From NCBI RefSeq assembly GCF_000372725.1, contig NW_005201287.1, forward strand, positions 1,023,081 to 1,087,080: a stretch of DNA of 64,000 nucleotides. Direction: 5' to 3'. The notes beneath the pieces were generated by a model. The model ran no database searches and was not told where the DNA came from. It saw only the letters and a list, made by a program, of their open reading frames with translations. Origin of the DNA: Emiliania huxleyi CCMP1516 (lineage: Eukaryota). Below, piece after piece: positions 19,208 to 50,487 of this stretch. The position numbers and the translations under genes are program-made. Position 1 is the first letter of the stretch. Each line of letters opens with the position of its first letter.

Positions 19208-19871
19208 TAGGGTTGTCAAACGTTAACTTTGGGCCTAACAGTTGCACAATTGTTGGCTGAAATCCTCAACGTTTTTCAAGTGTTCTCCCCAGCCCAAGCT
19301 GTTACTGTTTGCTGTTGTTACTGTTGTTCAGTGGTCAGCAAGCAGAAAATGTCAAAAAACCCGGGTAAACCAAAAATACGTTTTGCGTTTTTCCCGGGTA
19401 TTTTTTCGCATTTCGGGTATATTACCCGCACTGGACGCTGGAGATCGTCGTGGTTACTTCCCCCAGGATTGGTCTTCACTGCCCGCGGGAACACCCTCGG
19501 GCGGCCGGGTGGGGCTGCGTGCGGCTGGAGCTAGCATGGCTCGGTAGAGCCGAGACCCCGTGTTGAGCTTGAGGCGGCGCTCCCGTGGGCGGCTGTGGAA
19601 TCGGTAGATTCGACCTCAGATCTCCAGTATTCTCATCCCAGTGGATGAACGTCCGGACGTCCCTTTGTGTTCCTCTCGCCGTCCGCCAGCGAGACGCTCT
19701 GTCGCTGGCGGCCGCAGTTTTCTGTGACCAGAGAAGGGTCACTGCCAGGCCTTCCTTATTGTTGTTCAGCCGGCCTAATGTTCGCTACTGTTGTTGGGGA
19801 GCCCCACTGTTGTTCTGTTGTTACTGTTAACACTAGCAACACTGTTCAGCTCTTAACGTTTGACAACCCTA
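19208..19871. mobile_element. hAT-type MITE (664 bp)
   Basis: 19-bp perfect TIR TAGGGTTGTCAAACGTTAA (19208-19226 / 19853-19871) and 8-bp TSD GTCGAGCA (19200-19207 / 19872-19879); AT-rich, no real ORF. Confidence 0.92.
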
Positions 19872-21192
19872 GTCGAGCACTGCGCTGAGTCGCTCCTGAG
19901 AGGAGCTGTGTGTCGCTCTGTGGGTCGGGGCGCGAGACGGTTTGCAGGGATCCAACAGGCGGAGTGGAGGCTCGAGGGGCGTCTCAGGAGAGTTCGGCGT
20001 GGCTGACTGCACGCTAAAGGCTACACGCTCGCACACCACTTGCAGAGTGGCTCTCCCAGGCGCTCACCCCACGGCGGAGGCACGCCAGGCCCCGGGCAGC
20101 CGGCCGTCACTCGCCTAAAAGCGCCTAAGCGGCCTAAGCGGGGGGTGCTTAGGGTGCTAAGGCGCTTAGGCGGCCCTTGCGAGCGTAGGCCCGTAGCGGC
20201 GTGGTGATATCGTGTAATACAGGTGACTCCGATGACACTCATGATGCCCCTGCTAGTGTCATCGCTCAGAGAGCAGCCTCACGTGCACGCAGTGTGCAAT
20301 CTTTACCGGTATGGGAGTTTTTGGCTAATCAAACCCAAGGCCTGCACTAATCAAAAAGTGGTACGGGATACCAGTTGCCTCACGGAAATCAAAGCGAGTC
20401 GGAGTGCCTTCTTGGTGGCAAAATCGGCAAAATCGGCAAAATACCGGGTATTTTGCGGGTACTCGCCTCTGCTGATCCCCACTATCGGCTTGCCTCACCG
20501 CTCTCTTGCATCTCTGCTACCTCTCCCCGCACTATTCCCATCTGCGTGACGCCACGGCGTCGCCACCTCACCGTTCTCACAGCGTGCTCTCTCTTCAGTC
20601 GCGTGCTCGCGCCCACCCGCCTCCCTCCACCCTTCGGCCACACTCCCCCTGTCTCTCACCGCGTAGCTCCGCCCCCACCCCGTTCGCCTCTCGCGCCGCG
20701 AACGCCGCACTCATCGTGTCGCCGCCTCACCTCGCCACCCCGCCTCTTGGGCACTGCCGCAGGCGCTAGCCGCGTTGACCTCGACCTAACACGAGGACGC
20801 GTCCATGACGCGCCGCCTACCGCCACCGCCGAAACTCGACGGCAGCGCCCGTCGCGGCGGGCCAATCCCGGAGTATATTTCCGTGTCCACACGCAGTGCA
20901 CCTCGGCGCTATCCGGTCGCGCTTTCGGACAGGTGTCACCGCACCGCGTGAAGCGCATACGTTTTTTACTACCCGCGTCAATTGTCCGTCCATCCGCCAC
21001 TTTCCCGAGCCTTGCACGGTATTTTCCTTGCAGAGCTCTCTCTCTCTCGGTCTCGCCGCTCACCCCTCACCGAGAGACACACACACACCCACATCTAGGC
21101 TGTTCCCTCGTTTGAGACCGACACAAACCACGTCACGCCAAACAGCAAAAGCGATCGTCCTTTCACTGCACGGCCTAGTGGGCCAATGCCTC

Positions 21193-21714
21193 CTATGGGT
21201 CGAGGTGAATTGAGTAGCCCTTCCTGCAGTAATAGCACACCTGCTCGGCCGGGTTCTTCTCTTCCGAGCAGCCCGGCATGGTGCACTTGGAGCTCCCCTT
21301 GTCCTCGGCGGGGTGGGACGCGGCACCGTTTTGAACTGACATCGACACCGCGCCCCCGTCCACCACCACCGTTCCTCCTTCCGTGAAGCAGCGGCCAAGC
21401 GCAGCCTGCCCGTCTTGCACAGCGCTCGCCGTGCTGGCCGCTGCCGTTGAAACAACGACCTCACTCGCGGGCGCGATCGTGATGTCCCACGGCTCCTTAA
21501 GCACATCGCAGCACGTCTTACACATGGGGCCGCTTGCGTCTAGCCCAAGACGTGCGAGCACACCATCTTGCCGGCAGTGCCGTCCACACACGCAGCAAGC
21601 GACGAGCATCCCGCCGTCCGGCATAACGTTGACCACTTCCCACAGCTGAATCTCACGTGCCTCCGATGCTGTAAGTCCGGTGTGCAATCCCACCTGCAGC
21701 TTACCTGACGGCAT
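21193..21714 (-). CDS. Cys-rich (putative zinc-finger) ORF inside the element
   Basis: CCVCGRHC...MCKTCC and CTMPGC...VCYYC clusters; first ATG at 21714 (the track ORF extends to 21822). Confidence 0.45.
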   Translation of the reverse strand: MPSGKLQVGLHTGLTASEAREIQLWEVVNVMPDGGMLVACCVCGRHCRQDGVLARLGLDASGPMCKTCCDVLKEPWDITIAPASEVVVSTAAASTASAVQDGQAALGRCFTEGGTVVVDGGAVSMSVQNGAASHPAEDKGSSKCTMPGCSEEKNPAEQVCYYCRKGYSIHLDP

Positions 21715-21738
21715 TGCCCTGGTCACCACTCTCAGAAC

Positions 21739-21809
21739 GGGTCGACCTCTTTCGGACGACCTGGGTCGACCTCTTTCGGACGACCTGGGTCGACCTCTTT
21801 CGGACGACC
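21739..21809. repeat. 3 x 24-bp tandem repeat GGGTCGACCTCTTTCGGACGACCT
   Basis: Read directly; followed by an AT-rich tract at 21821-21856. Confidence 0.9.
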
Positions 21810-22165
21810 CCTGTTGTGCCAAAAAACAAGAATCTTAAAAGAATTTAAATAATTTCGCCACGCGCCTCAGACGGCTTGCACCACGCTCTTTCCCTTAAAC
21901 TCTGTTGGTGGTGGCGTGCCCCCCCCCCCACCCCCCTCCCGCAGCTATCGATATTTCTTTCTTTCAGCGGCTTTCTCTCCGAGCGCCTTTCATTCGCTTA
22001 CACCTCAAATGACCGTCCGCAATCACCCGGACACATGCGTGCGAATCTCAATCAGCGCCGTACCGATCACCGAACACGTCTCCGCTCACAAATGGGTCAG
22101 AGGCGCATATCACCGGCCAGCAACTCCGCCCCCCTCTCGCCTCCCCCCTTCTGGGCATCAGCTCT

Positions 22166-22516
22166 CGGGCTCGGCCGCCAACATGGACATGGACATGGAC
22201 ATGGACAGACGGGCACCCCCTCGCGCCGCTCGGCCCGCCCTCTTCCCCCTCCCCCAAGCACGCACCTGGGGCGGGCGCGAGCCAGACAGACCCTTGCGCT
22301 TGCCTCGAGCGCTGGGGGACTTCGGGCTCGGCCGCCCAACATGGACGTGGACATGGACATGGACAGACGGACGCCGGACCCTCGCGCCGCTCGGCCCCGG
22401 GCGCCGGACCCTCGCGCCGCTCGGGCCGCCTCCTCCCTCCCCCCCCCCCCCCCCCCCAAACGCACCTGTCGCGGGCGCGCAAGCCAGACCCCCGCGCTTG
22501 CCTCGAGCGCTGGGGA
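22166..22516. repeat. Duplicated blocks containing (ACATGG)n
   Basis: cgggctcggccgcc-aacatggac... at 22166 and 22323; gcgcttgcctcgagcgctgggg twice (~22296 and ~22494). Confidence 0.8.
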
Positions 22517-22540
22517 ACGTGATGACCAGCACGACGCGCC

Positions 22541-25500
22541 CTACCCGGTGCGCTGCGCCCTCTTGTCCACCTCGAGCTGCGCCGCCGCGACACGCTCGTC
22601 CGAGAAGCTCCCGACGCCGAGGCGCGCCTGCCAGAGCACCGACTTCGGGTGCAGCTCCATCTTCTCCCGCAAGTCGAGCCCGCCGTCGTCCACCGCGATG
22701 CCCGAGATCTTTAGCTTCTCTCTCGGTCGCGTGCAGGCCGTGTAAAGCAAGTTGCGCTGCCCCTTGAAGCGGTCGGCGTGCACGTGGACGTTCTTCGCCT
22801 GGCTCCCCTGCGCGGAGTACACCGTCACGATGTCCGAGTACCTACAGTGCAGATACTCACACGCCACTCACCATTCCATACTAGCCTGGTAGTTACCCCA
22901 CGCATTGCCAGGCGTACCGCCACGGCGGGCCCCACACCTTGGCGACGCCGTGCTCGCCGAGGTCGACCCACACGAACTCCTCCGGGATCCAAGCCGACGG
23001 GCACCCCTTCAACATCGGGCACGTCACCTCAAGCTGCCGCGTCTCCGCGTGGTAGCACACGACGTCGAGCGGCTCGCCCTTGCTCAGGTACCACCCACGG
23101 CCAGCCTGTCGACCCGTCCGCACGCCGGCCTTGCCGATCGGAAGGTAGTGAACCCGCTGGCCCGGGAAGGTGTACACCTCCGTCAGCATCCGCGTCGCCT
23201 GACTCGCACGCCGCTGCGCTGGCCGCGGCCAGAAGCGAAGGTCGGACCCCCCCGGTCCGCCAGACTCGCATCGGGCACGCACCACCGATAGCCCCGGCTT
23301 CGACGCGAACTTCTCCCTCGCAATCGCGTAAATCTCGAGGTTGTCGTGCACCACGTCCATGAAGGTGTCGTCGGCGACTGTCGTCGAGCACTGCTGCACG
23401 ATCGGCCAGACCGCGTCGAAGTCCTCGCGCCGCAGACCCCGGCTGAGCTTCAGCAGGTCCGCGTCGCCCGTGCGGTAAATCGTCTCGAGCGGGAAGCACG
23501 CGAGCTCGCCGTTGCTCTCTGCGCTCGTGATGAGATCTCCCTCCCAGATCATCTCCCGATCGCCCGCCCCAGCGGCGTCGTTCACAGGGGGCGTCTGCAG
23601 CCCGTCCATGAGCAGCACAAACCTAGGCTTGTTGCCGCTGCACACGCGTGGTGCGACTTGATGCGCCATGTCCAGCTGGCCGAAGTGCGTCTGCGCCGCC
23701 TCGTCGCACACGAGGGTGCTCTTGGCGAACACCCCCGCCGCCTTCACCTTCCTGGGATCGTTGCGACGGATCCCCGCCACCACCGCATCCGCCGACCACG
23801 TCTCTCCGAGCCCGACTCCCAAACCGGTGAACGTCGTGAGCGCCTCGATCTCGGGCGCGAAGCTGCGCCGCGGCAATACCTTGTCGATCGCCTCTTGGAT
23901 CGCGCGCCGTGCTCCATGAGTGGGAGCGAGCACCGCGATGTCGTCCGTCCGCAGCAGCGCCAGGATCTCGATCAGCGCAGTCTTCCCGCAGCCGGCCGGG
24001 CCAGACACGATGGTCACCTCCTTGCTGTCGACAAGCACGCCGTGCAGCGCCGCTCGCTGCGCTACATCGAGCCGCGAGTACAATTGCATAGCCTGCGCCT
24101 GCTTGTTCGCAGGTGCCTCGCCGATCACCTTTAGCAGCGCTGCCGCAACCTCATCCTCACCCCTCGGGGCGAGCATGTCGATCACCTCGTCCACGGTCAG
24201 ATTTGCGCCATCGCCTGTCAGGCCAAGCGCGCGCGCAGCGTCGCCAGGCGAGGTCGCGTCGATTGCGGAGTCGCCCGCGCGCCCGGTCCCTTGCCCGAGC
24301 CTCGACGGCGTGGAGAAGGCGACGCCAGCCGCCGCCGCCGCCCCCGTCGCCTCCGGCGCCGTCGCCACCGCCGGACTCTCCACTACCGCCGCCTTGTCCG
24401 CCGCCGCCGCCGCCTCTGCCCCCACCGCCTCCGTCGCCGCCGCCGCCTTCAACGCCTCCGCCGCCGCCTCCGGCGCCGCATCGTCCTCATCCGAGGATCC
24501 GAGATCCATCGGCAAGTCCGCCGAGTCGCCCGGGCGGGACTCCTCGCGCGGCGCCGCATCCTCGTCGTCGGAGAATCCGACCTCCATGGGCGCTCCCGCG
24601 GAGTCGCCCAAGCGAGGAGCACCGTTGCTGGACTCGTCCTCCTCGCTGCTGGCAACGACCGGCACGCGTGACGACAAACCGGGCTCCACGACGGCGGCCG
24701 CCATCGCAGGAGCCTCTCCCGTCGACGCAGGGCTCGCCGTCGCCGACACCGCAGCCATTGTGCGCCTAAACTTTCGCACGTGCAGCACCGAAGCCGCAGC
24801 AGCCTTTGAAAGCCGCAACAATTCCTCTGCGAGCTGTAGCTCCTCTTCATCGTATTCATAGCCCGCATCGCCATCTCCATCCTCGCCGCCGCCGTCGCCG
24901 CCGCCGTCGTCGCCGCCGCCGCCGCTGTCGCCGCCGCTGTCGCCGCCGCTGTCGCCGCTGTCGCCGCCGCTGTCGCCGCCGCCGTCGTCACCGGCCGCTG
25001 TGCTACGCGTCGCCTCGGCGAAGCCGCCGCCGATGTCGCCGCCGCCGCTCTCCTCGACGCCGTCGCCTGCCCCGCCGTAGCCCGCCTCACCGCTGTTGCC
25101 AGCCTCGCCGCCGCCAGCCTCACCACCGCCTTTCTCGCCGCCGCCCACCTCGCCGCCGTCGACCTCCTCGTCGCCCGTCGCCTCCGCTCCACTGTCGAGC
25201 ACTGCCTGCACCTCTCCGCCTGCCTCACCGCCAGACAAGATTGCGGAGCCGGCCGCGTCGCCCGCCGCTTCCGTCGCCTCGGGCGAGAGCCCCGCAGCGG
25301 TCGCATCGAGCGCCGCCTGCGCCGCCGAGCCCGCTACCGCCCCAGCAGCAGCCGCGGTAAACTGAATGCGCTCGGCCTCCTCGCCGCCGTAGAGCACGAC
25401 CGCGGCACCGCCGCCCAGCAGCACCAGAGCCATCTCCTCGGCGCCGCCCTCGGCGCCGCCACCTGCGCCCTCGCCGCCGCCCTCGTCGCCGCCCGCCTCG

Positions 25501-26334
25501 CCGCCGCCCCACACCCGCTGGTCCGAGTCGGACGTGACCGCCGAACCATACACGCCCGCGTAGTACACGCCCTTCTTGCGCGCGAAGGTCAACTCAAGCT
25601 CGGCCAGAGCCTGCGGCGCGAGGTACTGTATGGCCTCCCCCGCCTCGCCGCCATACAACGGCCGGGCAACGCCGCCGCCCAGCATCAGTCGCCGGCGCCC
25701 GGGGGCGCCATCCGGGAAGCGCATCAGGGCCGGCCGAGGTTCCACCGTCGGCTCGGCGATGGGCATCGAAGTTACCTCCCGCTCCTCGTCCGACCACTCG
25801 GAGGTCGACACGGACCACCAGTTCACAGACTCGTTAGCGCCGCTGTTGCCGTCGCCGACACCCTCGCCGCCCTGCATCGAGTCGTCCTCCGAGACCTCGA
25901 CCACCTCGCCTCCTGGCATAGAGACGTCCTCCGAGCCCTCGACCACCTCGCTGCCCTGCATCGAGTCGTCCTCCGAGTCGGTGACCACCTCGACCCAGAC
26001 CTCACGAGGATCGTCGCCGCAGCCGTCCTCGGCGCCGACCCCTTCGTCGCCCTCGCCGCCGCCGCCGCTGCCGCCCCCTCCGTCGCCGTCGTCGCCGCCC
26101 TCCGCCACGCTCTCGTCGCTTGCCCCGCCGTCGCCTGCCTCGGCCGCATCGCCCGCCGCTGTCTCCGCCGCCTCGGGCGAGAGTCCCGTTGCGGTCGCAC
26201 CGAGCGCCGCCTGCGTCGCCGAGGACGCTACCGCCCCAGCAGCAGCCGCCGTAAACTGGATGCGCTCGGCCTCCTCGCCGCCGTAGAGCACGCACGCAAC
26301 GCCGCCGCCCAGCAGAGCCAGAGCCATCTCCTCC

Positions 26335-26414
<80 letters not shown>

Positions 26415-28244
26415 CTCGCCGCCGCCCTCGCCGCCGCCCTCGCTGCCGTCGCCGCTGCCGTCGCCCTCGCCTCCACCGCCGTCTACGTCGCCGCCGTCGC
26501 TGCCTCCCTCCGCCTCGCCCTCGCCTCCGCCTCCCTCCGCCTCGCCCTCGCCTCCGCCGCCATCAGCATCGTCCTCGCCATCCCCTCTCTCCGCCCCGTC
26601 GAAGCCGCCGCCGTCCGCCTCCCCGCCGCCTCCGCCGCCTCCGCCTCCGCCACCACCGCTATCGCCACCCTCGCCGCNNNNNNNNNNNNNNNNNNNNNNN
26701 NNNNNNNNNNNNNNNNNNNNNNNNNNNNNNNNNNNNNNNNNNNNNNNNNNNNNNNNNNNNNNNNNNNNNNNNNNNNNNNNNNNNNNNNNNNNNNNNNNNN
26801 NNNNNNNNNNNNNNNNNNNNNNNNNNNNNNNNNNNNNNNNNNNNNNNNNNNNNNNNNNNNNNNNNNNNNNNNNNNNNNNNNNNNNNNNNNNNNNNNNNNN
26901 NNNNNNNNNNNNNNNNNNNNNNNNNNNNNNNNNNNNNNNNNNNNNNNNNNNNNNNNNNNNNNNNNNNNNNNNNNNNNNNNNNNNNNNNNNNNNNNNNNNN
27001 NNNNNNNNNNNNNNNNNNNNNNNNNNNNNNNNNNNNNNNNNNNNNNNNNNNNNNNNNNNNNNNNNNNNNNNNNNNNNNNNNNNNNNNNNNNNNNNNNNNN
27101 NNNNNNNNNNNNNNNNNNNNNNNNNNNNNNNNNNNNNNNNNNNNNNNNNNNNNNNNNNNNNNNNNNNNNNNNNNNNNNNNNNNNNNNNNNNNNNNNNNNN
27201 NNNNNNNNNNNNNNNNNNNNNNNNNNNNNNNNNNNNNNNNNNNNNNNNNNNNNNNNNNNNNNNNNNNNNNNNNNNNNNNNNNNNNNNNNNNNNNNNNNNN
27301 NNNNNNNNNNNNNNNNNNNNNNNNNNNNNNNNNNNNNNNNNNNNNNNNNNNNNNNNNNNNNNNNNNNNNNNNCTGCCGGGCAGTCCGACCTCGTCGACAC
27401 CGCCTCCGCCGCGACCTCCCAAGCCGACGAGGTCGTCGCCGCCGTCAACGACATCGAGATCGAGCACGGTTTCGCCACCAGGAACGACGCCAGGCACAGC
27501 GCCGCTGCTCAAGCCGCCAGCGCCAGCGCCGCCGCCAAAACCGCCACGCAGGCACTCGTAGCCGCCAGCGACAACACCCACACCATCGTCGCCGACCTCT
27601 CCGCCTGCGAGAGGTGAAGGCATGGCATCCGACGCGCATGCTTTCCACAACTCGTAGACGAGATCCGCGTCTCCCTCCTCGTCGCAGCTGGATGCGCCAA
27701 TGTCCAGCCTCGGCGGCGACTCGGGCCGCTCGCCGGCAACCTTTGCAGCCTTTGCAGGACTTGCAGCCCAGTACTTACGTTTTCTCCACTGGCTGATCGC
27801 GACGCCGCGGATCACGTGCACGCCCTCGACGCGGCAAAGTACCGTCTGCACGTCCATGGGGGTCTTGGCCTCGCGTATGGATGGCATGAACTGCCAGGCC
27901 AGCTCCTTGCTGTCCGGATGCAAGATTGATTTTCGACACCAGCACGGCTTAAACTTCGTGTACTTCTGATGCTTGTTGGGCATTCGTTTGACTTGCAATC
28001 GTCCCAGCTTGGTATGACCTTGGTACGACCCAAATCTCGCCCTCGATTTCTTTCCCAGACTTTTCGGTGCCCGTCGTTTCCACGTTATTTTCAGCGCCGT
28101 TTGCGCCCGGACATGATTTTTTTGGCGCTCGGGCATTCCCCTGCGCGATTTCTTTTCACGAGAGCAAGTAGAAGGTGTCCGTCCCCTTCCGCTCGACGCT
28201 GGAGTCACGGTCCCCGACGCCACGCCAGCCCCAGCTTGCTGCAC
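22541..28244 (-). CDS. Pif1/RecD-family SF1B helicase with a long low-complexity mosaic N-terminus (gap 26678-27372; intron ~22842-22917)
   Basis: Walker A GPAGCGKT, motif Ia LAPTHGA, Walker B VCDEA, DGLQTPPV, LETIYR, and after the intron VTVYSAQGSQ and LYTACTR. Continuity across the N gap is unproven. Confidence 0.8.
26678..27372. other. Assembly gap
   Basis: Run of N. Confidence 1.
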
Positions 28245-28359
28245 AGCAACTGCGCCACAGCGGCGTCCCGGCCGCGGCCTGCTTCACCCGCTGTAATTAC
28301 AGAAATTCTCCTGCTGTAATTGCTTCTACAACAGGCTCAAATCTCGAAAGCCACGCCTC

Positions 28360-29065
28360 ATGCCGATCCTGGCTCTACCACCGCCAATCACACCACCGCC
28401 GCCACGCCCACCCCACGCCGTCAGGCCAAGGACGTCAAACAGACCGGGCCTACACCGCGTTATCACCGGCCTTGCCACCGGTACGGTACGGGCGGGGGCC
28501 GCACCACCGGCCTCACCGCGCACCACCGGCCTCACCACCACCGCCACCACCCTCCGCACCGCCCCTCCTCCGCCCTCCCTGTTGTCGCAGACGCCTCCCT
28601 CGCGGGGATTTACGCCGCCTCTCCGCCGCCTTTCCGCCATCCTCGCCTCCGCCCGCCGCCCTCGCCGCCGCCGCCCTCACACCCGCCGCCGCTGCCGCCG
28701 CCGCCGCCGCCACCCTCGCTGCCGCCGCCCGCCCCGCCGCCGCCCTCGCCTCCGCCGCCGTCCGGGATGCCGCCGCTCTCGCCCTCGCCTCCAGCCGCGC
28801 CGCCCCCGTCGCCGCCTGCCCGCCCCGGCGCCCTCCCCACGGCGGTGCTGTGCGCGCCTTCGCACAGTGGCGCCACTGTGCCAGTTACTGTCCCTGCGCC
28901 AGTGACACCAGAGCCTTTTTTTTCACGGATTCAAGATCAAAGATTACCTGCGCTTCGCTCGCCATCCCGAGATCACCCACACACGACCGTATTACACATT
29001 TGCACCCCGACTCACGGTCTCACATTTGCACCCCGACTCAAACCTCTTGCGACGCACCGCGGTGA
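28360..29065 (+). other. His/Pro-rich (SPPPP) low-complexity segment inside the element, possibly a captured host gene fragment
   Basis: HHRPHHHRHHPPHRP...PPPSPPPPSHPPP in one + frame; no clear start or domain. Confidence 0.3.
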
Positions 29066-32000
29066 TCACTCGCGTCTTCATCAGCCTCATCGCCGCAGCC
29101 CGGCGCTCCGTCGCCTCCGTCGAGCGCCGCGATCGCCTCGGCGACCGTCTCGTCGTCGAGCTCGAGCTCGTCGACGGCCGCGCCCAGCAGGGGCGCGTCT
29201 CCCGCCTCGCTCGCGCTCGCCTTGGCGGTCGCCGCCGCCCCGGCCGCGTACGCCGCGTTGCCGATCGCGGCCCGCGCCGAGAGGTTGTACCACGCCCAAT
29301 ACGTCTCCCGGAAGCTCTCGCCCAGCGATGCGGCCGCGCCCACCGCGAGCGGCTCGACGGCTGCGTTCTCGGCCTGGGGTTCGCGCTGCCAGCGCAGCCG
29401 CACCGCGCCGCCGCAGTGCACGCACCGCCGCTCCTCGAACCGTGCGACCGTGGTCGGCCACTCGATGGAGGGTCGGCCTGCGCAGTCCTCCGAGCCGCAC
29501 TCGAGGATGCAGATGTCCTCGCTCCGCCGCCGCACGCGCCCGTACACCTCTGCCGGTGTGCCCGCCGTCGGAAGCACGTGCAGAGCCCCCACACGCAGGA
29601 TCGAGCCCTGCAGCTTCGCCGGAAGCTTCCGCAGCATCCGCAGCTCGCGCGTGCGGTCCCTGCGATCCAGCCCGAACGCGATCGCGTCGTCCTCCGACCG
29701 AGGGGCCCACGCGTGCGTCGAGAGCATCGCCATCCGCAGCGCCGGCGCAGCGCGCAGCCGCTCCTGCCCCTCCTTGTAGAGCCGAAGCTGGTGCGCCTCC
29801 ACCGCGTCGCTCTCCGCCTCACCCTTCCGATGGCGGAGCCGGAGCTGCGCCGCCTCGTACTCGTCCACCTCCTCGCCGCCACCGGCCGCACGCGCGCTCG
29901 CCTTGAAATACTTCGGCAGCAGCGCGACGCCGAGCCGCCGCTGCAGCTTGCGTCGTGCGCTCGCCACCTCCTCCACCGCCTCCGCCACCTTCGCGTCGCT
30001 GCGCGCCGCCTGCCGCTCCGGGCACGCCTGCGGCAGGTCGCCGAAGCCGCGCACGCCACCCACCTCCGGCACACGCGACGCCGAGAGCGACGTCAGCGGC
30101 GCGCGCTCCACGCTCCCGAGCGCGTCGCGCCGCATCCAGTAAGCGCCGAGATCGCGCGTGCGCAGGTCTGCGCGATACACCCGATTCATCGTCCGAGAGT
30201 TGACCTGGCGGTGGCCCAGCACTCGCGCAGCGACGGCGCCGTCGCCCGCCGACGCCGGCTGCTCGCACGCGTCTTTGCGCAGGCTCCACGCGCCCACCTT
30301 ATGCCGGCTCATGCCAAGCTGGCGCCCCGTCTCGATCAGGCGCCGGCAGAGTCGCTGCACGTCGAAGCTCTCGGTGAACAAGAAGAGGCCCGTCGCCTCG
30401 TCGACGCCTGGGAACAGAGGCCGGTCCAAGGCCGCCTTGTCGAGCACCCAGCCATCCGCTCGGCACGCCGCCACTAGCGCCGGGAGCGTCTCGTAACCCG
30501 TGTCCGCCAGCTCGAGCCCGGCGAACCCGCTCGGCTCGGCCACCTTGCGACGCAGCGCCGCCGCGCTCGCTTCGCTCAGCTTCGAGTAGCACGCCCTGAA
30601 GCTTCCGCAGCGCAGCAGCAGGCGCACCATCGCCAGCGTCCCGATGCGCATCATCTGGTCCGAGTCGGGCGTGATCGCCGTCCCAAACTCGTAGCACGCG
30701 TAGTACTCGCCCTTCTTCCGCGCAAAGGTCACCTCCATCCGGATGAGGGCCTCGAAGTCGCCCTCGGTCATCACGCCCGCCCCGCCTAGTCCCCGCAGCA
30801 GCTCATCCGCGGCGATGGACAGGTCGCCCATCGTCAGCGGCGGCAGCTCGTGCCTGCCGGCGAGCGGCACGGCTCAGTGTCATCTCGCCCCATCGCACGC
30901 CAACGCCACCGTTCTACTCGCCTCTCTCTCTCTCTCTCTCAGCGGGAGACGCGCGCCAGTGGCTGTCCGAATCGGCCGCGTCCGCCGCGTCGTTCACCGC
31001 CATGCCCGGCCGGCACCCGGTCTGCCGCGCGAAGCACAAGTAGGCGTTCATGATGAAGGCCACGTTCACCTCGAACGGCTCCATCAGCTGCGTGTCCTGC
31101 ATCTGGTACTCTCCCACCTGGAAGAGGTGCTGCTTCGTGCACGGCTTCGTCGTCGCCTCGCGCAGCTCGGCCATCGTCCGCCGGCTCGCCACCGCGCTCG
31201 CCCTCTCGCTCGCCGCCCGCTGCGCCGCCTCACTCTGCCCGTGCGACGCGCTCTCCTGCGCCGCCTCGCGGCCCGCCGCCCGGCCGGCGGCTCCTGCCGC
31301 GTCCTTCATCCCGCCGCCGCCGCCGTCGTACAGCGACATCACCTGCTTGGTCACCAGCCGCCAGTACTGCCTCGCGTCGTCCGGCATCGCCGGCCAGATC
31401 TCGCGCCACACGTGGTTCTTCATGTGCTGCAGCGCGACGTAGACCGTGTTCTCGCCGCGCCCCGTGCGCACCGTCGGCTCCTCGTCCCGCGCGTCGCCCC
31501 GCTCGGTCGCGTGCCACCGGCTCGCCCTCGGCGCGGTGATTCGCGTCGTCGCCAGCCACTTGCCGAAGCGGATCGTCCACCGCACCGTCGGGTGCAGACC
31601 GAGGGCCGTCCGCTGCATCGGCACGCTCTTCCCCGCCGCGGCCTGCGTCGCCAGGAACTCGCGCAGCCGCAGGCGCACGCGCCGAAGCTGCACCGACAGC
31701 GCCGGCCCGTGTGGCGCTAGCATCGGCCGCCCATCGCCGCACGCGGCCTCCTCCTGCCGCTCGTCATCCTCCGCCTCGAGGGCGTCCGCCAGCGCGCTGC
31801 GCCGCACACCCCGGCGCACAGGAGGCGGCGCCGGCCGCACCTCGGCCGCCTCGGCGTCGCCCGCGGCACGGGCGCCCCGCTCGCCGTCCGCGCGGTCCAT
31901 CGCCGCATCCCCATCCCCGTCTGCGGCAGCGCCGCCTGCGCCCGTGCCGGCCTGCTCTGCGACGGCTCGCCACCGCTCGTCGTCCAGCATGTGCCACCAC

Positions 32001-32572
32001 CGCCGATCCGGGTAGCCGTCGTACTCGACCTGGTGCGCGATCCGTCCGTCCCCGTCCTCCTCCCGCGCCATGACGGTCGCAGGGTACCACCGCTCACTGT
32101 CGCAGAAGATCTCGAGGCGCGATCCGGTGGACAGGACAGTGTGGCCGTCGAGCGCCGCCCTGGCATCCTCGCGCTGTCGCTTCCGCCGCTTCGCCTTCGT
32201 CTCCTTGCTGCGCAGCAGGGTGTAGTTCGGGCCCACCTCCGCCACGCTGTCCAGCAGCTGGGCGGCGCTCGCCATCTCGACCGCGTCGTCCTCCGGCGGA
32301 AGCTCCGCGTCGCCCGCGGCCGCTTCCCGAGCGCGCTCGTCGCGCATCCGCTCGTGGTGGGCCTGCCGACGCGCCACGCCGGCGCCCGTGTGCCTCGCCG
32401 CCGCGTCCGGTGACCGCATCGGTCGCTGCCACAGGTCGTCCCACAGGTCGTACCAACAGGTCGTCCCAAAGGGGACGCATCCAAACCGCCGCATTTCGCC
32501 CGCCGAAAAGTCTCCCACTCGCTCTGCCCCAATCTCGAACCAATCTCGAGTCGTCTCACTAGTTACATACAT
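29038..32572 (-). CDS. Tyrosine recombinase with N-terminal Tudor-like domain and C-terminal Cys finger; GC-AG intron 30854-30956
   Basis: Catalytic set in order: R (FARQTGCRPG), K (FARKKG), SLR (WSLRK), H (RVLGH), Y (MNRVY). Tudor-like GSRLEIF..RWYPATV..HQVEYDG; C-terminal CGSEDC..CVHC. The intron joins the two track ORFs in frame (..HW|HELPPLTMGDL). Confidence 0.82.
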
Positions 32573-33415
32573 ACCTGGAAAAACCCGGGTATACCCGGGT
32601 AATACCCGCACTTTTGCATGGTTTCGCCCCCGGGACCACACCGACAGCCGCTACAACTACTTAAAACCCCGCATACCACTTTCGCATACCACTATACCAT
32701 ACCACTCCAAAACTAATCAAAATATCGCCAAATACCAGTCTCATACCGGTAAAGATTGCACACTGCGTGCACGTCCACTGTCTACCAGGCCCTGGTCGCA
32801 CACTGGACTGCCACTGAGCTGCGCTGGTGCGGAAACTCAGCATCAGGATCTACTGGCGCTCTTCTCGCAGCCGCAAAAAAGAATTTTTATAATATTCCTG
32901 TAGGCGCGGCGCGCCACGGTGAGAGGCGGATCTTCACGGCCGCAAGTTTGTGTGAAAGGAGGCGGTCTTCCCGTGGATCCTCGCGCGCTCCCACCGGCAG
33001 GAGGGCGCCCGCCGCCGTCTTCCCGGGCGAGCTCAACTTGTCGGCAGATGTTCAGTGTAAAAACTTTTTCATCGTGGCCGCCAATGCCAGCGAACGCGAA
33101 CATACTCGCATCGATCTCGCTCTCGCACGACATTTGCGATTTGGATTTTCAGGATTCATCTCCGCGGACGCGCGGAGACTACTGCGCTCGTGTCGCGCGC
33201 GGCGCCACCCCCCCCCCCCCCCCCCCGGGGGGCGGGCCATTGCCCTAACTCACCTACTGCCTCACACACCCGAGGGCGGAGCAAGCGAGAGGCCTGCAGG
33301 CTGCTAAAGAGCGCAGGCCAGCTCCTCCTCGCCCGCCCTCGGTGCGCCCAGAACCGAGAGAAGCAGCCCTGCCTCGCCCTCCCTACTTTTGTTGCCGCGC
33401 CGGAGGGGCGGGGAG

Positions 33416-35143: not shown

Positions 35144-35564
35144 CGCGCTGTTTCGCGAAAAATAATACCGGCGCCGCGTGGCGTGGAGCGGTTGAGCATC
35201 CCTCCGGGGGGGGGGCTCTGCGCCGGGAGGCGTTCTTGGAGGCTAAACCCCTTTTTAAATTCGGGGCCGACTCCGCTACGCTCCGACCCGAATCGTCTGG
35301 TCGTCGTCTCTTAACAAAACATCGTCTCTTTCACTTTCAAACAAAAACTTTCTCTCACTTTCTTCTCGAATTTGGAGAGAGAGAGATTTTTGAAAACCAA
35401 CAAGATTGGGCTCGGCAGACCAACAAGATTGGGCTCGGCAGCTTGAATTTGGAGGGCCTAAAAGTTAAGGTGTTGCTTCAAAAGGGGCTAGTGCTAGAAA
35501 AGAGGTCGGGCAAACAACAATATCAAACAACAAACAGGTCGCAGCGTGTACCTAACGCGCTCCG

Positions 35565-36700
35565 ATGGCACCTACGCCACGTGGGGTGGGGCGCTACCGA
35601 CCGAAAGCTCGTCGCAGGATGCAGAGACGAAGGCCCTCGTGGAATGCGTCGAGAGAGCCAGCAAGGGATAGACAGCGGAGATCAGAGCCGACTCCTAGTA
35701 TTAATCGACAGCAGACCGGTTGGCCAATCGGTGGACGCAGCATGGAAGGCGAGGAGCCCTCAAGCTATACGTGCGAGGCCGAGGAGAGAAGACATGGGGT
35801 CCCGTACCATGCGGAATCGACCCTATCCGGTGCTCAAGTGCTCAAGACATGGAGCAGATTGCGCTTGCGAAATGAGACAAACTAGGAAGCCTCAAGCTCC
35901 TCTGGATTCCGAGTCACGTAGGAATCATCCCCAACGCCTACGCCGACGCGATTGCCGACGCCCACCGATTCGACGCGCCCAAGGACACATACCCGAGCCC
36001 CGGGTCGTGTCTCGTCAGATACGCGAAGCTCGAGAACGGCAACCACGGAGCAGGACGGGCGAACGGAATCTTCTCCACGACAGCCGGGGCGCGACCGGTG
36101 CACACGACCTGGCCAGAGACGGCGTCCAGAGGTGGATCGCCAAGCGATTTGGATGCGGGTTACGACGACTCCGGCGATTGGAGACCCAGAGACTTACCTC
36201 GACTCGACTGGGACAGAGATTGGAGACCGAATCTCGGTGAGGCCTGGCGGGAGGCTAGCAAATGGACAGCAGTCATCCGCATCTCCAGCTCGGGTGGCGA
36301 GGGCCAGCACAGTTCCACAAACCCCTCTGAACTCGGAGCCGTAATGATGCTGCGGGCGGACAAATTCCCCATCGCGGTCGCCCTCAAGGAATGCCCCATC
36401 TGCAGCACCGCGTGGGACGAGCAACCCTTCGCGACACTACGCCACGTCCTTCGGGAAGTATGGGGACAGATCTTGGACGCTGGCGATGCAACCTCAGACA
36501 TACTTCACGGTCACGCCGCAGAGGAGGCGGCGAGGAAGAATGCGCTCGCCGCTCGGTATGGCAGGCCAGACGATAGAAAGGAGGCTGCGCGGAGAGGAGG
36601 GGGCGGAGGCCAGCGAGGAGCAGGAGCGGAGAGCGAGCGGAGGGGACGAGGAGGAGGGAGGGGCAAGTGACAGACCAGGGAATAGAGGGCGCTGGCAGAG
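35565..36700 (+). mobile_element. Degenerate non-LTR retrotransposon fragment (RNase H C-terminus + zinc-binding motif)
   Basis: Frame from 35891 reads LKLLWIPSHVGIIPNAYADAIA (RNase H end) and later CPICSTAW..ATLRHVL (zf-RVT-like). A frameshift/stop lies near 35875. A second copy of 35796-35846 is at 38107-38159. Confidence 0.7.
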
Positions 36701-37087
36701 GCGGAGGTTCAACCGGAGGAGCGCCACAAAGGAGGCGCAGCGAGCGGAGGAAGCGGCGCCAACCAGCGACGACGTGGAAATGGAGAGGCAGCTCGAGGGG
36801 GAGGCGGATCTCTCAACCGCTGGCGGCAGGCCTCAATGCGGCCCGGTCAGCGACGACGAGGACGAGATGAGAATTTGCGACGCCTTCGACGAGGTGGGGA
36901 GGGGTCCAACTCGATCCGCCCGGCGGCACAAGGGGAGGCGCTCGACGACGAGGCGCCAGCCGCGATGGCGGCAGGCATGCGCGCCAACCACCCCCGGTGT
37001 TTTGACACCATTATTTGGTATATTAACCTTGCGGCCGCCTAGATAGACTGAAAGAGGTAGACACCACAGGAGGCGAGGCCACCGCTA

Positions 37088-37098
37088 ATGCTGCTGCT

Positions 37099-37143
<45 letters not shown>

Positions 37144-37230
37144 AGTGCTGCCGCCACTGCTGCTGCTCTCTCCCGCCCCGCCCGCCCTCCCCGCCCCGCC
37201 CCGCCCGCCTGCCCACCCGCCCGCACGCCC
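37088..37230 (+). repeat. (GCT)n followed by CCCG-rich tract; similar block at 63304-63392
   Basis: The same order of motifs appears at both loci. Confidence 0.6.
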
Positions 37231-38781
37231 TCCTTCCCACCAGTCGCCCCACCCCTCCGCCCCCTCCAGATCGCCCTTTTCCCAATCGACAAATAGGCGC
37301 TCGATTCCTCCTCTCGCTGCCTACTCGCTGCCTCGAGGGGAGGAGGGGAAGATGTCGAGCGGGCGCCACTGCGCTAGCACGGCCGGAGGCCCCTCCCCGA
37401 AAGGCAAGTATTAGACCCACGAAACCGAGACCGTCCCCTCCCCACCGCCCCGATGCCCCCACCCCCCTGCTCCCCTCCCCCCCTCGGGAGGGCCGAAGAG
37501 AGGCGCCCGTGGGGACCCCGCAATTCCCTTCCCCCCTCGGAGGGGGCCGGACGGAGGCGTACCCCGAGGGCCCCGCTCTTTCCTTCGCATAGCGGCCACT
37601 CTTCGGATCGCTGGTCGAGCGACCCGGGGGATGCCCTGCGCGCCTGACCCAGGCGCGAGAAACGAATCTGCGAGGCGCGGCCGCTTATGCGGCCCGATGG
37701 GGAGGAGTGGGGCGGACTACGGGGATCGGCTTCTTACACCGCCCTCCCTTGCAGCGAGCCCCCTCCAACCCACCGGCGCTAGGTCCCGGGGGACGCAGGG
37801 GTCAGCCCCGCGCGACCTCGGAAACTAGCCGGGGCAGTCGGAGAAGGGGCAACTCCGTGCACTGACGGTCGGCCGCCAGAAAACACGCCTGCGTGGACCG
37901 CGTCACACCAATGCTCGCTACCCAACGCGGCCAAAGCATATCCACCTCGAGAACCTCGAGAGAGACAGGTCGCAGCTCATGCTAAGTCCTAAGAGCTAGA
38001 CAGCTAGAGAGAACAACCACCCTGTCCCCCCATTATTGCGTACACCAACACTTTCCAGAAAAGCTCTCTCTCTCCTGGGTGGCAGGTATTGGTGGAGACG
38101 ATCCGAGGGGTCCCGTACCAATGCGGAATCGACCCCTATCCAGTGCTCAAGTGCTCAAGCGTGGCGGCGCTTTGCTTTTGATTACTTTGCCGGCCCCGAA
38201 TCGTGAGCGGAGCTCCTCCCTCAAGCTCGATCACGCATGCACGTTGAGTGACTACGGCGGCGAGCTGCTCAATCAGGCCAGGTTGCCGGAGGCGGAGCAC
38301 CTCCAACTCCTCCTCCGAGAGCCTCCGTGCTCCGAGTCAGACACGACAACGGCGACTGCCGCCCCCCCTCGCCCCCTCCATTCGTCGACTGCGCCCTCTT
38401 CTCCTCCATTCGCCGCCTGAAGCAGCGGTCTTCTAAAAGAAAGAAAAGAAAGAAAACAGACAACCAAGGGAGGGATGGGAGGACGGCACGCCGCCACCAC
38501 ACAGGGATTTTAAGGAGAGGAGTGTGGTGCTAGCCGTCGCCCACCCTAACCCTTGGTGCTTGGTCGTCTGCCTCTTTCTATCTCCCTTCGCAGTCCCTCG
38601 CCGATTCTCGCTGCAACCTTCATGCGTCTTCGCGGTTTTCTTTTCCAGGGTGCACGGAGCTAAGACCTAAGTGCCTCGCCACCCTCGCAGGAGTCGCTTA
38701 GGCGGCTCCCGTGGTGTACCTGTGTTAGAGTTAGTGCCAGTGCGCGCCAGTCCCGTGCCCAGTGTTGTGCGAGGGAGCTTT

Positions 38782-39192
38782 AAGAAAGAAAGAAAACAGA
38801 CAAACCCAGACGAGGGATGGGGGAGGAGGACAGGGTCCCCACCTGCACGAGCAGGATTTTGGAAGGACGATCAGGGGGACAGGTGGGGCTCTCCTGCTCC
38901 TGACAAGGGACACGACAGGTTCGCAGCGCGGTGCACGGTGGACTCCCAACTCCACTGGCGGTCTCATCTCAGTCTAGCGACCTGCCTCCAGCTTCCCGCT
39001 GGCAGTCTCTCACTACCACAGGCACACTGACACAGGGGTGGCAGAGGGGCGGCGGCACGCTTTAAGAAAGAAAGAAAGAAAACAGAGAAAGCCAGACGAG
39101 GAAGGGGGAGGAGGACAGGGTCCCCACCTGCACGAGCAGGATTTTGGAAGGACGATCAGGGGGACAGGTGGGGCTCTCCTGCTCCTGACAAG
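38782..39192 (+). repeat. One and a half tandem copies of the 4943-5207 repeat
   Basis: Direct sequence identity. Confidence 0.9.
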
Positions 39193-39352
39193 GCACGCTT
39201 TGTTGTCAATGAAAAAATTGTTTTTGCGAGACTGCCCGCCCCCGCAAGAGGTGCGCTTCTGATCCAGCCCACCCTCAACGCGGGCAGAAGATACAAACAC
39301 CCAACGCGGCCAGAAGATATCAACCTCGAGAACCTCGAGGGAGTGCTGCCGA

Positions 39353-40240
39353 ATGCGGACCGCCCTCGCCACCGAGGTGCACCGCAGCGACTCGACGTCC
39401 AAGTTGATATCGTCGCCCTCGCGCTCCCTCACGCCCGACCTGCCAGAGACGGAGGACGAGGCCGCCTGGCTCGGTGCGGAGGATGCGGTGCCGGGCTTTC
39501 TGAGCCCAAAGACGAAGCTCGGATGGCTGCCGCAGCGATCTGTGACAGTGGCCTTCTCGTGCCTCGCCTTCTTCGCGCCCTTTCTCTGGGGCGCTTGGCC
39601 GATGTGGCCTGTGCAGTGCGCGCTCTCTCTCCTCAGCGATTACGCCAGGCCGCCTAGATGCGCGAAAGTGTGAGGTCGCACTGTGGGCGCGCACTGCGTC
39701 TGCGAGCGCACTGCATCGGCCGCGCGCGCGCTCGTCGCGTGCGTGCGCTCCTCGAAGCGGCCGCCCTCATTGTCCGCAGGTGCACACGGGGCAGGACTCG
39801 TGGTGGCACGTCGCGGACCGGCTGCTGGCGAGGAGCCTGTCTGTCTTCATGATTTGTACCTCCCTCGTCTCCCTCGGCCTGTGGTGCACGGTCGCCCTCA
39901 TCGCGGGCTCCTTCTCCTTTTACGGCATCTCGGTCCGGGCGATGTGGAGGCAGGACTACACCACTTATGTCTGGGCGCGCCGTCCCTCGCACTGCCCCCG
40001 CGGTCGGCGCCAGAAGGGCCTCCCGCGCTCACGCCGCGCCCGCGCTCGCCGCAGGCGCACACGATGTGGCACCTCGCCGCGGGCGCCTCCAACTCGGTCA
40101 TCATGGCGAGCGTGTGCGACGCGTCCCTCTCGGCGCAGTGCAGGCCGCGCGCGTGGCTCTTTGGCTACGTCAGCTGCAGATGTTTATCGTGGAGGCCGCC
40201 TGGGGAGGACCTAGCGACGAGCTCCACCTTTGAGTTCTAA
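39353..40240 (+). CDS. Hypothetical multi-pass membrane protein (SDY..H..DR and H..WH motifs), two introns
   Basis: Exons join as ..LSLLSDY|VHTGQDSWWHVADRLLAR..TTYVW|AHTMWHLAAG via GC-AG introns (~39643-39779 and ~39975-40054). Confidence 0.6.
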
Positions 40241-49873: not shown

Positions 49874-50487
49874 TTAGGAGAGCGTGGCGGCGAGGTCGGC
49901 GGCGTTTACGGTGTCGTGCGACAACGATCACACGGCGTTCGCGTCGAACTGAGACGCCGCGCCACTTAATTCTTTTTGAGCTAGACTTCGTTGTTAATTG
50001 GAACAAGCGAAGGCACACACGACATGACGCCAAACACACGATTGCACGCACCGCACCGCACCTCGCACCCGCACCCGCCGCCCCCCCGCCCCCTGCCCCG
50101 CCTAGGTGGGAAAGAGATGAGGAGATGGGACAGCGAAGGAGGAGCCACGAACACGTATGGGAGGTTTCGTTGATGCGTCACGCTGCCCGGCGTCTCTCAC
50201 TTTCCGGGACAGCCCCGCCCTTGTGAGGCAGGAGGGTGTGACGACTACCCCGTACGCCCTGTTGCTTCCCCTCGCAACTACGACGCTTCCGCGGCGCATT
50301 TCCGTCATCATCCGGCCGCGCCCGAACAATCAAAATCGTCGCATTCTGGGGACGGACGCAACTCGTTGTCGTCTCTCGCCGCCGCTGGCTGCGCTGCCCT
50401 CAAGAGTCAGTGCTGCACCGTGCGATACAGCTGGCCGCACCTGACTCGTTCCTCACCTTTCCGCCCCCACCCTCCGCCAACAGGACC

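Follow-up and report, generated by a model that had tools for sequence, protein, structure and literature searches.

Does the recombinase-like gene in this stretch of the Emiliania huxleyi genome encode the transposase of a DNA transposon, and if so, what else belongs to that element? The stretch, hereafter the window, comprises 64,000 nucleotides of strain CCMP1516 (contig NW_005201287.1, positions 1,023,081 to 1,087,080 of the forward strand), and coordinates below count from its first nucleotide. A first-pass annotation had pointed to a minus-strand gene for a tyrosine recombinase (YR) fused to a Tudor-like domain. We found that the spliced gene very probably encodes a predicted YR of a DNA transposon. 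This YR is likely the transposase of an undescribed, haptophyte-associated family, working in the manner of Crypton and Starship recombinases. Perfect 33-bp inverted repeats bound a 12.5-kb block in which the gene lies together with a helicase gene, and its product ends in a motif resembling the C-terminus of histone H2A.X; repeats, helicase, and tail were all absent from the first-pass annotation. Signals in host chromatin may guide the recombinase in the site or timing of its insertion.

A spliced gene encodes a predicted tyrosine recombinase

Two minus-strand open reading frames (ORFs), 30914-32650 and 29038-30873, underlie the YR gene. They had been proposed to join through a 103-nt GC-AG intron with a (GA)n tract, and excision of 30854-30956 (GC donor, CAG acceptor, GA run of about 8 units) does leave a single open frame with one stop. 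Because 35 in-frame GT/GC-AG options lie nearby, an open frame by itself is little proof. Scored against nine homolog segments spanning the splice site, the 103-nt GC-AG junction ranked 1st of the 35 (2204, versus 2097 for the runner-up); the alternative junctions scored lower and were rejected. L003, a copy 92-98% identical to the gene, carries the identical intron, and L005 has an intron with a GT donor at the same site. Intronless relatives continue uninterrupted across this point. Homology thus supports the splicing and confirms the intron as real at the level of sequence comparison. It also argues against the donor chosen in P0192, the automated gene model for an E. huxleyi copy that is 92% identical; this donor lies upstream and is paired with the same acceptor, and its use removes the catalytic Arg. 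A model that skips the GC donor and deletes this residue may explain why the family carries no recombinase annotation.

Exon 1 (30957..32419, minus strand) encodes the N-terminal segment, the Tudor-like insert, the core-binding domain, and the first catalytic Arg. Exon 2 (29038..30853, minus strand) encodes the rest of the catalytic set, as judged from residue conservation and predicted fold, and then a helical, Cys-containing C-terminal region. The length of about 1140 amino acids given earlier corresponds to translation from the ATG at 32572 (1143 amino acids), but relatives begin at the level of the ATG at 32419, so the protein probably has 1092 amino acids and the earlier figure is about 50 too long. 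Deletions in L003 fall between these two ATGs. The homolog L001 is a continuous 1136-amino-acid ORF, Tudor-like domain included, and is 62% identical across residues 54-1081. The stop residue is shared with P0046 and with 4/5 of its cluster members at full length.

The catalytic residues were assigned by motif order and conservation. On the minus strand, the first Arg lies in a TGCRPG motif (31010..31012), followed by K (30714), W (30288), R (30279), H (30213), and Y (30177); the sequence of motifs claimed from the first inspection, R-K-(S)LR-H-Y, was located as TGCRPG, K, W-S-L-R, G-H, and Y. The W occupies a slot that is His in most YRs. Among 106 core-covering proteins, with denominators counting those that have a residue in the column, we observed R in 41/41, K in 48/51, W in 48/49, R in 45/49, H in 41/41, and Y in 39/41. 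The R-K-(W)-R-H-Y set is conserved across the family, and the catalytic part is under constraint, with a ratio of nonsynonymous to synonymous substitution rates (dN/dS) of 0.20.

Structural comparison gave the same identification. Residues 140-795 of L001, modeled from 101 rows, reached a predicted local distance difference test score (pLDDT) of 78. The best Foldseek matches of this model were Cre (E 4e-4) and XerH, and the best 14 of 48,161 representative chains in VIA-align were all tyrosine recombinases, with both domains covered. It matched Cre, Xer, and lambda integrase at Z 12-14, including Z 14.4 for Cre (root mean square deviation [rmsd] 10.0, 274 aligned) and Z 12.1 for the lambda Int core (rmsd 3.0, 162/164). 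The proposed check of the fold against Cre and XerD therefore favored a recombinase, through a homolog. In the ESM Atlas, the top cluster for the window protein was DUF3435 (0.97, a score that denotes likeness only; 174 features), followed by NDC10_II (0.96), and 22 of 30 matches fell in unnamed clusters. These data predict a core-binding and catalytic fold of the Cre/Xer/Int type.

Several results weigh against this identification. In Pfam, DUF3435 was the sole match to the YR protein and fell under the cut-off (E 0.038, 13.3 bits versus 25.8), with no GCR1_C or DUF3504 match, and only 8/101 family members matched DUF3435 at E ≤ 1 (best 0.016, also below the cut-off). The likeness to DUF3435 captains noted earlier thus holds in the Atlas but not at the Pfam threshold. 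PDB sequence searches with the YR returned nothing significant. The fold was modeled on L001, not on the window protein, and a first model, of P0009 from 22 rows, had a pLDDT of 55, was poor in the catalytic part, and gave no YR match; its confident C-terminal region matched generic helical hairpins alone.

The recombinase belongs to a large family

Protein searches with the YR returned 29 + 2 matches. At E ≤ 0.001 the family comprises at least 388 clusters (50% identity), 150 of them listed, and 12 metagenome loci carry relatives. Just three members bear names; they are distinct E. huxleyi proteins, labeled in databases as Tudor, Agenet, and Chromo domain proteins, and from them we infer a haptophyte host for the family. 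Three members (L003, L012, and P0056) are truncated or interrupted copies that look like transposon debris, as expected for a transposon family. Comparison of these sequences points to a likely large, undescribed, haptophyte-associated family whose reader slot holds a Tudor domain, a chromodomain, or nothing. In the open-access literature, including the available text of PMC3627910, PMC13465315, PMC11162782, PMC8869645, and PMC9156397, we found no haptophyte YR transposon, Tudor-YR fusion, or H2A.X-like transposase tail; Repbase and supplements, which may hold such elements, lay outside this scope.

The first-pass annotation had taken the intron as an argument for DNA-based transposition. Retention of the intron in the 92-98% copy, together with the finding that none of the 26 frames scanned with Pfam within or overlapping the block (outside a 695-N assembly gap) contains a reverse transcriptase, supports DNA-based spread. 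The intron is not family-wide, however, and the existence of intronless relatives means that it marks a sub-lineage only.

Two copies show other interruptions. A TTAGGG-type telomeric array breaks the YR copy in L002 (760-940), and L003 (50-603) has CCCTCTG repeats in both orientations and a CACT-like terminus beside the YR start, possibly from a CACTA-type insertion.

A 12.5-kb block carries the recombinase and a helicase

The left arm (20281..20313, plus strand) and right arm (32742..32774, minus strand, upstream of the likely YR start by about 320 bp) form a perfect 33-bp inverted repeat, or 48 bp at 90%. It is the sole complex inverted repeat among 33 exact repeats of at least 20 bp in the window. 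If its outer ACGT is taken as a 4-bp direct repeat, the arms inside that repeat are 29 bp long; the ACGT beside both arms is itself palindromic. The block so delimited is flanked by a FAR-17a/AIG1 gene on one side and a UBX gene on the other, has a host-like guanine-plus-cytosine (GC) content, and holds, all on the minus strand, the YR gene, a Pif1/RecD-like helicase gene, and a putative Cys-rich ORF of 213 amino acids with no Pfam match (21193..21834).

The superfamily 1B (SF1B) helicase gene (22541..28283, minus strand; AAA_30, E 2e-7) encodes a low-complexity N-terminus and the core, followed by an intron and a last exon with motifs V and VI. Its 76-nt GT-AG intron (22842-22917) has a junction colinear with P0039, P0040, and P0043, and the 695-N gap (26678-27372) falls in its long N-terminal region. 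Nine homologs are 44-62% identical, and the matches are to Pif1 and Dda. The HUH Rep domain that Helitrons have fused to a Pif1 helicase was looked for with Pfam, and no Rep family turned up in P0003 or P0039; the window's helicase ORF includes the 695-N gap. The N-terminus of another helicase homolog, P0037, appears ubiquitin-like by eye. Within the helicase ORF and in frame with it lies a piece of about 80 bp (25518..25595, minus strand) that is 83% identical to 30655-30735 in the YR catalytic domain, suggesting past contact between the YR and the helicase.

These features suggested that the block might be one element, a reading to which we assign an even chance. A serious alternative, which we would place somewhat short of that mark, is that the YR gene on its own makes up a small, Crypton-sized unit (about 3.6 kb, roughly 28995-32574) and that the block is a nest, in which a short element with terminal inverted repeats (TIRs) was invaded by the YR and by an unrelated helicase element. 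The sequence of L003 departs from the window exactly at 32574. Next to this point, about 150 bp before the YR start, is a TATGTATGTAA motif shared with L001 (32563..32608), beside a 16-bp palindrome (32584-32599); L001 begins 10 nt ahead of the motif and stops at the stop codon. The tail of P0056 resembles window 32573-32608 and abuts internal YR coding sequence, and with the L003 departure this suggests that the right arm may be part of a different repeat. At the opposite side, two exact 20-bp direct repeats (28995-29014 and 29021-29040; together 28995..29040), the second overlapping the YR stop, could mark the 3′ end should the YR unit prove small. A CCCGGGTA motif cluster similar to those of the block occurs in a neighboring hAT-type miniature inverted-repeat transposable element, and none of the 12 loci extends far enough downstream to show linkage to the helicase. 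All of these observations count against a single element. Against a nest, all three ORFs share one strand and a YR piece lies in frame in the helicase ORF, and L003 may be chimeric or carry a separate insertion; both of its ends have what looks like library-adapter sequence. Between one element and a nest, the odds seem about even.

The neighboring element (19208-19871), just after the stop of the FAR-17a/AIG1 gene, is non-autonomous and presumably hAT-like; its terminal inverted repeats are 19 bp long and start TAGGG, and its target duplication measures 8 bp. Clusters similar to its CCCGGGTA cluster lie inside both arms of the 12.5-kb block. Short tandem arrays that have GACGACC in common, possible binding sites, sit in opposite orientation in the left (21740-21810, plus) and right (32430-32470, minus) parts of the block. 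Just downstream of the helicase gene, a unit of 160-200 bp that contains GGACAT repeats occurs twice in diverged form (22165-22518). At the YR stop codon, an overlapping TGAGT(T/C)GG is found in three divergent copies (L002, L008, and the window), and GGTGCAA then follows in the window and L006, a possible 3′ cis element.

Tudor-like and chromo domains occupy a variable linker

The Tudor-like motifs noted on first inspection were found in place, in a variable low-complexity linker (31970..32146, minus strand). ESM Atlas matches of this domain to the Tudor clan scored 0.84-0.88, with one family or clan common to 9 of the 10 best family-assigned matches. The corresponding L001 model is five-stranded (strands 3-53, pLDDT 62-83), and its Foldseek matches included the ERCC6L2 Tudor (probability 0.97, E 0.46), the 53BP1 Tudor, and the NSD3 PWWP domain. 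Aromatic residues are retained at the W/Y-P and E/Q-Y positions, which we take to be a putative methyl-binding cage. Together with a sub-threshold Agenet match, these results support the Tudor assignment of the first-pass annotation: the domain is predicted to be a Tudor/Agenet-like five-stranded barrel, a call that is weak by E-value. The Agenet matches (E 0.023 for the window, E 0.005-0.02 in range) were below the Pfam cut-off, the Tudor and PWWP Foldseek matches were weak (E 0.1-0.5), and a sequence profile of the domain searched against the PDB found no Tudor; each of these counts against it.

The linker is filled differently among relatives. Thirteen proteins have both flanking anchors, and of these four carry a Tudor domain (two being near-copies), one a chromodomain, and eight neither. 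A chromodomain at the C-terminus is present in P0007 and P0009 (E 2e-4, below the cut-off). Among 145 further family fragments, Pfam recognized neither a YR family nor a reader family at E ≤ 0.05. In a tree of 11 core-binding segments, the four Tudor rows fell together on one side of a branch with weak support (69/83), so that the tree accommodates a single Tudor origin and leaves repeated gain unsupported. The reader domain is dispensable for the family.

We considered the presence of two different reader folds in one slot to favor a role in chromatin. The reader may bias integration, a proposal that we advance tentatively. Weighing against it, the Tudor domain is not present in 9/13 relatives with both anchors, its dN/dS values of 0.67 and 0.79, estimated from about 38 synonymous sites, indicate weak constraint, and exon 1 compared with L003 has a dN/dS of 0.78.

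The recombinase ends in an H2A.X-like motif

Exon 2 ends in a region with a putative zinc site, C-x4-C ... C-x2-C (29413..29499, minus strand), which lies where it had been reported and is kept in most full-length homologs and partly lost in P0014. The protein then terminates in SQEV-stop (29038..29052, minus strand), matching the SQ(E/D)-hydrophobic C-terminus that is the signature of H2A.X (PMC4751559 and PMC11143218). The same kind of end occurs in 9/30 proteins that reach the last conserved block, against about 0.002 expected from composition in 30 proteins. After two near-copy pairs are merged, the nine represent seven distinct lineages, with L006 as an eighth. Over the 40 residues preceding the motif, 26/28 pairs align no better than shuffles, which indicates that the terminal motif was retained independently. 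In three copies for which DNA is available, tail differences are synonymous or stop-preserving, favoring selection on the protein; constraint at the DNA level near the YR stop may also act. SQE lies within 10 residues of the end in 3 more of the 30 proteins. As evidence against a conserved tail, 18/30 have no SQE near the predicted end, many of them perhaps cut or mis-called. That the tail is a functional motif for phosphatidylinositol 3-kinase-related kinases (PIKKs) and BRCT domains is a proposition that we rate slightly below an even chance; by analogy with H2A.X, the tail could be phosphorylated and bound by BRCT domains.

The YR could also be mobile in the way proposed while its Tudor or chromo domain and SQE tail serve self-regulation, localization, or turnover or are nearly neutral passengers, an explanation with an appreciable though minority claim. 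It accounts for the eight of 13 proteins without a reader, for the lack of one in P0046 (69% identical), and for the weak constraint, and YRs usually choose sites by DNA sequence (PMC10104507 and PMC9977147). It sits less well with two distinct reader folds in the same linker, with a chromodomain also at the C-terminus, with a Tudor domain about 51% identical between relatives amid linker that cannot be aligned, and with a terminal motif retained on unrelated tails.

Proposed mechanism and its implications

Starship YRs are reported to excise a circle and reinsert it (10.64898/2026.09.21.753150 and PMC10104507), and excision and reinsertion by the YR have been proposed for Cryptons (PMC3212892 and PMC9977147). 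By analogy, the window YR would act on a short core sequence present at each end of the element, for which the ACGT beside the 29-bp inverted arms is a possible candidate; recombination between these cores would free a circle that inserts again at a matching core, as with Starships. The reader domain would steer the element toward particular methylated chromatin. The tail, phosphorylated by ATM/ATR-type kinases, would bind host BRCT proteins and so tie activity or insertion repair to the DNA damage response. Either as a partner or as a piece of cargo, the helicase would move along with the element.

Taken whole, the model is that, outside fungi, haptophytes have captain-like, cargo-bearing YR transposons of their own whose exchangeable Tudor or chromo reader picks the landing chromatin, whose tail mimics phosphorylated H2A.X to recruit BRCT repair or checkpoint proteins or to activate the enzyme after damage, and whose Pif1-like helicase assists movement. 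We consider it unlikely that all of these parts hold together.

It is improbable that the block is instead the remnant of a polinton-like virus or transpoviron, with terminal inverted repeats, a YR, and a helicase. Its size and gene set do resemble the end modules of polinton-like viruses (PMC11296320). However, Pfam detected neither a capsid nor an ATPase or primase family among the scanned frames, which exclude the 695-N gap, although such capsids can escape Pfam. Viral contigs in IMG/VR yielded no relative of the YR (17 pattern matches, none confirmed) or of the helicase (18 pattern matches, none confirmed), and two 25-nt end patterns were unmatched there; the spliceosomal introns and host-like GC content also argue against a viral origin. 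About as improbable is a host gene domesticated from a YR, like DUF3504 genes or Ndc10, and now serving as a chromatin protein: the intron, reader domain, and PIKK-type site are typical of host proteins and NDC10_II was the second Atlas cluster, but the catalytic set, lost in domesticated genes (PMC3212892), is intact in nearly all members, which include many divergent, truncated copies, with no fewer than three different proteins in a single E. huxleyi strain.

Our preferred reading, that the YR is a transposase, points to a large family of YR DNA transposons that has gone unannotated; its named members, from an alga that is dominant worldwide, are entered in databases simply as Tudor, Agenet, or Chromo proteins. 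The natural Tudor, chromo, and reader-less versions offer a ready comparison for whether readers steer YR insertion, a question raised for Starship captains, and the conserved H2A.X-like tail offers a cheap, concrete test of whether a transposase taps the DNA damage signaling code. If it does, this would be mimicry of a histone tail by a transposase, which we did not find in the open-access literature.

Elsewhere in the window, an intergenic, repeat-rich region with duplicated segments (35400-39400) is probably more degraded mobile DNA, and a 2238-amino-acid ORF (50242-56958) contains 315-bp near-identical repeats and an Ala/Lys-rich region with a 357-bp period; Pfam gave it no more than a weak match.

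Comparison with known systems

The pattern that the tail shares with H2A.X is four residues long and sits at the very C-terminus in both. Among protists the final residue of H2A.X is variable, SQEM included (PMC4751559), and on other H2A variants the transplanted motif serves as a minimal signal for BRCT recruitment (PMC11143218). In the window, it terminates a predicted recombinase rather than a histone. The fusion of a histone reader to an integrase recalls the chromodomain integrases of long terminal repeat (LTR) retrotransposons, in which chromodomains are reported to direct integration (Gao et al. 2008, as cited in PMC12506042). Those enzymes are of the DDE type and act with reverse transcription, whereas the window gene encodes a predicted YR and the frames scanned yielded no reverse transcriptase.

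Polinton-like viruses combine inverted repeats, a YR, and a helicase, as the block does (PMC11296320). The block differs from them in that no capsid or packaging genes were seen in the frames scanned, introns are present, and IMG/VR viral contigs provided no confirmed relatives. Like Cryptons, of which active and algal examples exist (PMC9977147), the element would be a DNA element mobilized by a YR without a reverse transcriptase in the frames scanned. Cryptons have 4-6-bp terminal direct repeats (PMC3212892), but CryptonF, CryptonS, and CryptonA are described without terminal inverted repeats. The GCR1_C and DUF3504 domains were unmatched in our protein, and the available text of the Crypton paper contains neither a chromodomain nor a helicase.

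The closest parallels are with Starships. DUF3435 is the nearest named Atlas cluster, and if the 32742-32774 arm is an end, the YR lies near one end and points inward, as captains do. HhpA of Hephaestus likewise has an aromatic residue in the first-His slot, Tyr in HhpA (PMC10104507) and Trp here. In contrast to Starships, the protein falls below the DUF3435 cut-off and comes from a non-fungal host, and the element as assembled is at most about 12.5 kb with one or two further ORFs, rather than tens to hundreds of kilobases. It also differs in its perfect symmetric inverted repeat, in an N-terminal Tudor that alternates with chromo, in the Pif1-like helicase, and in an SQE-hydrophobic tail absent from the available descriptions of the captains compared. 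Because it fails the DUF3435 cut-off and the size criterion, we do not file it as a Starship. Kirc, the captain of the Starship Enterprise, combines a YR with a zinc finger and a chromodomain, and integration targeting has been proposed for it (PMC8092012), so the concept of a reader-guided YR is already known. What is new is a haptophyte-associated family in which one slot holds a Tudor domain, a chromodomain, or neither, with an H2A.X-like C-terminus and, in the window, a helicase-bearing block of 12.5 kb between perfect 33-bp repeats.

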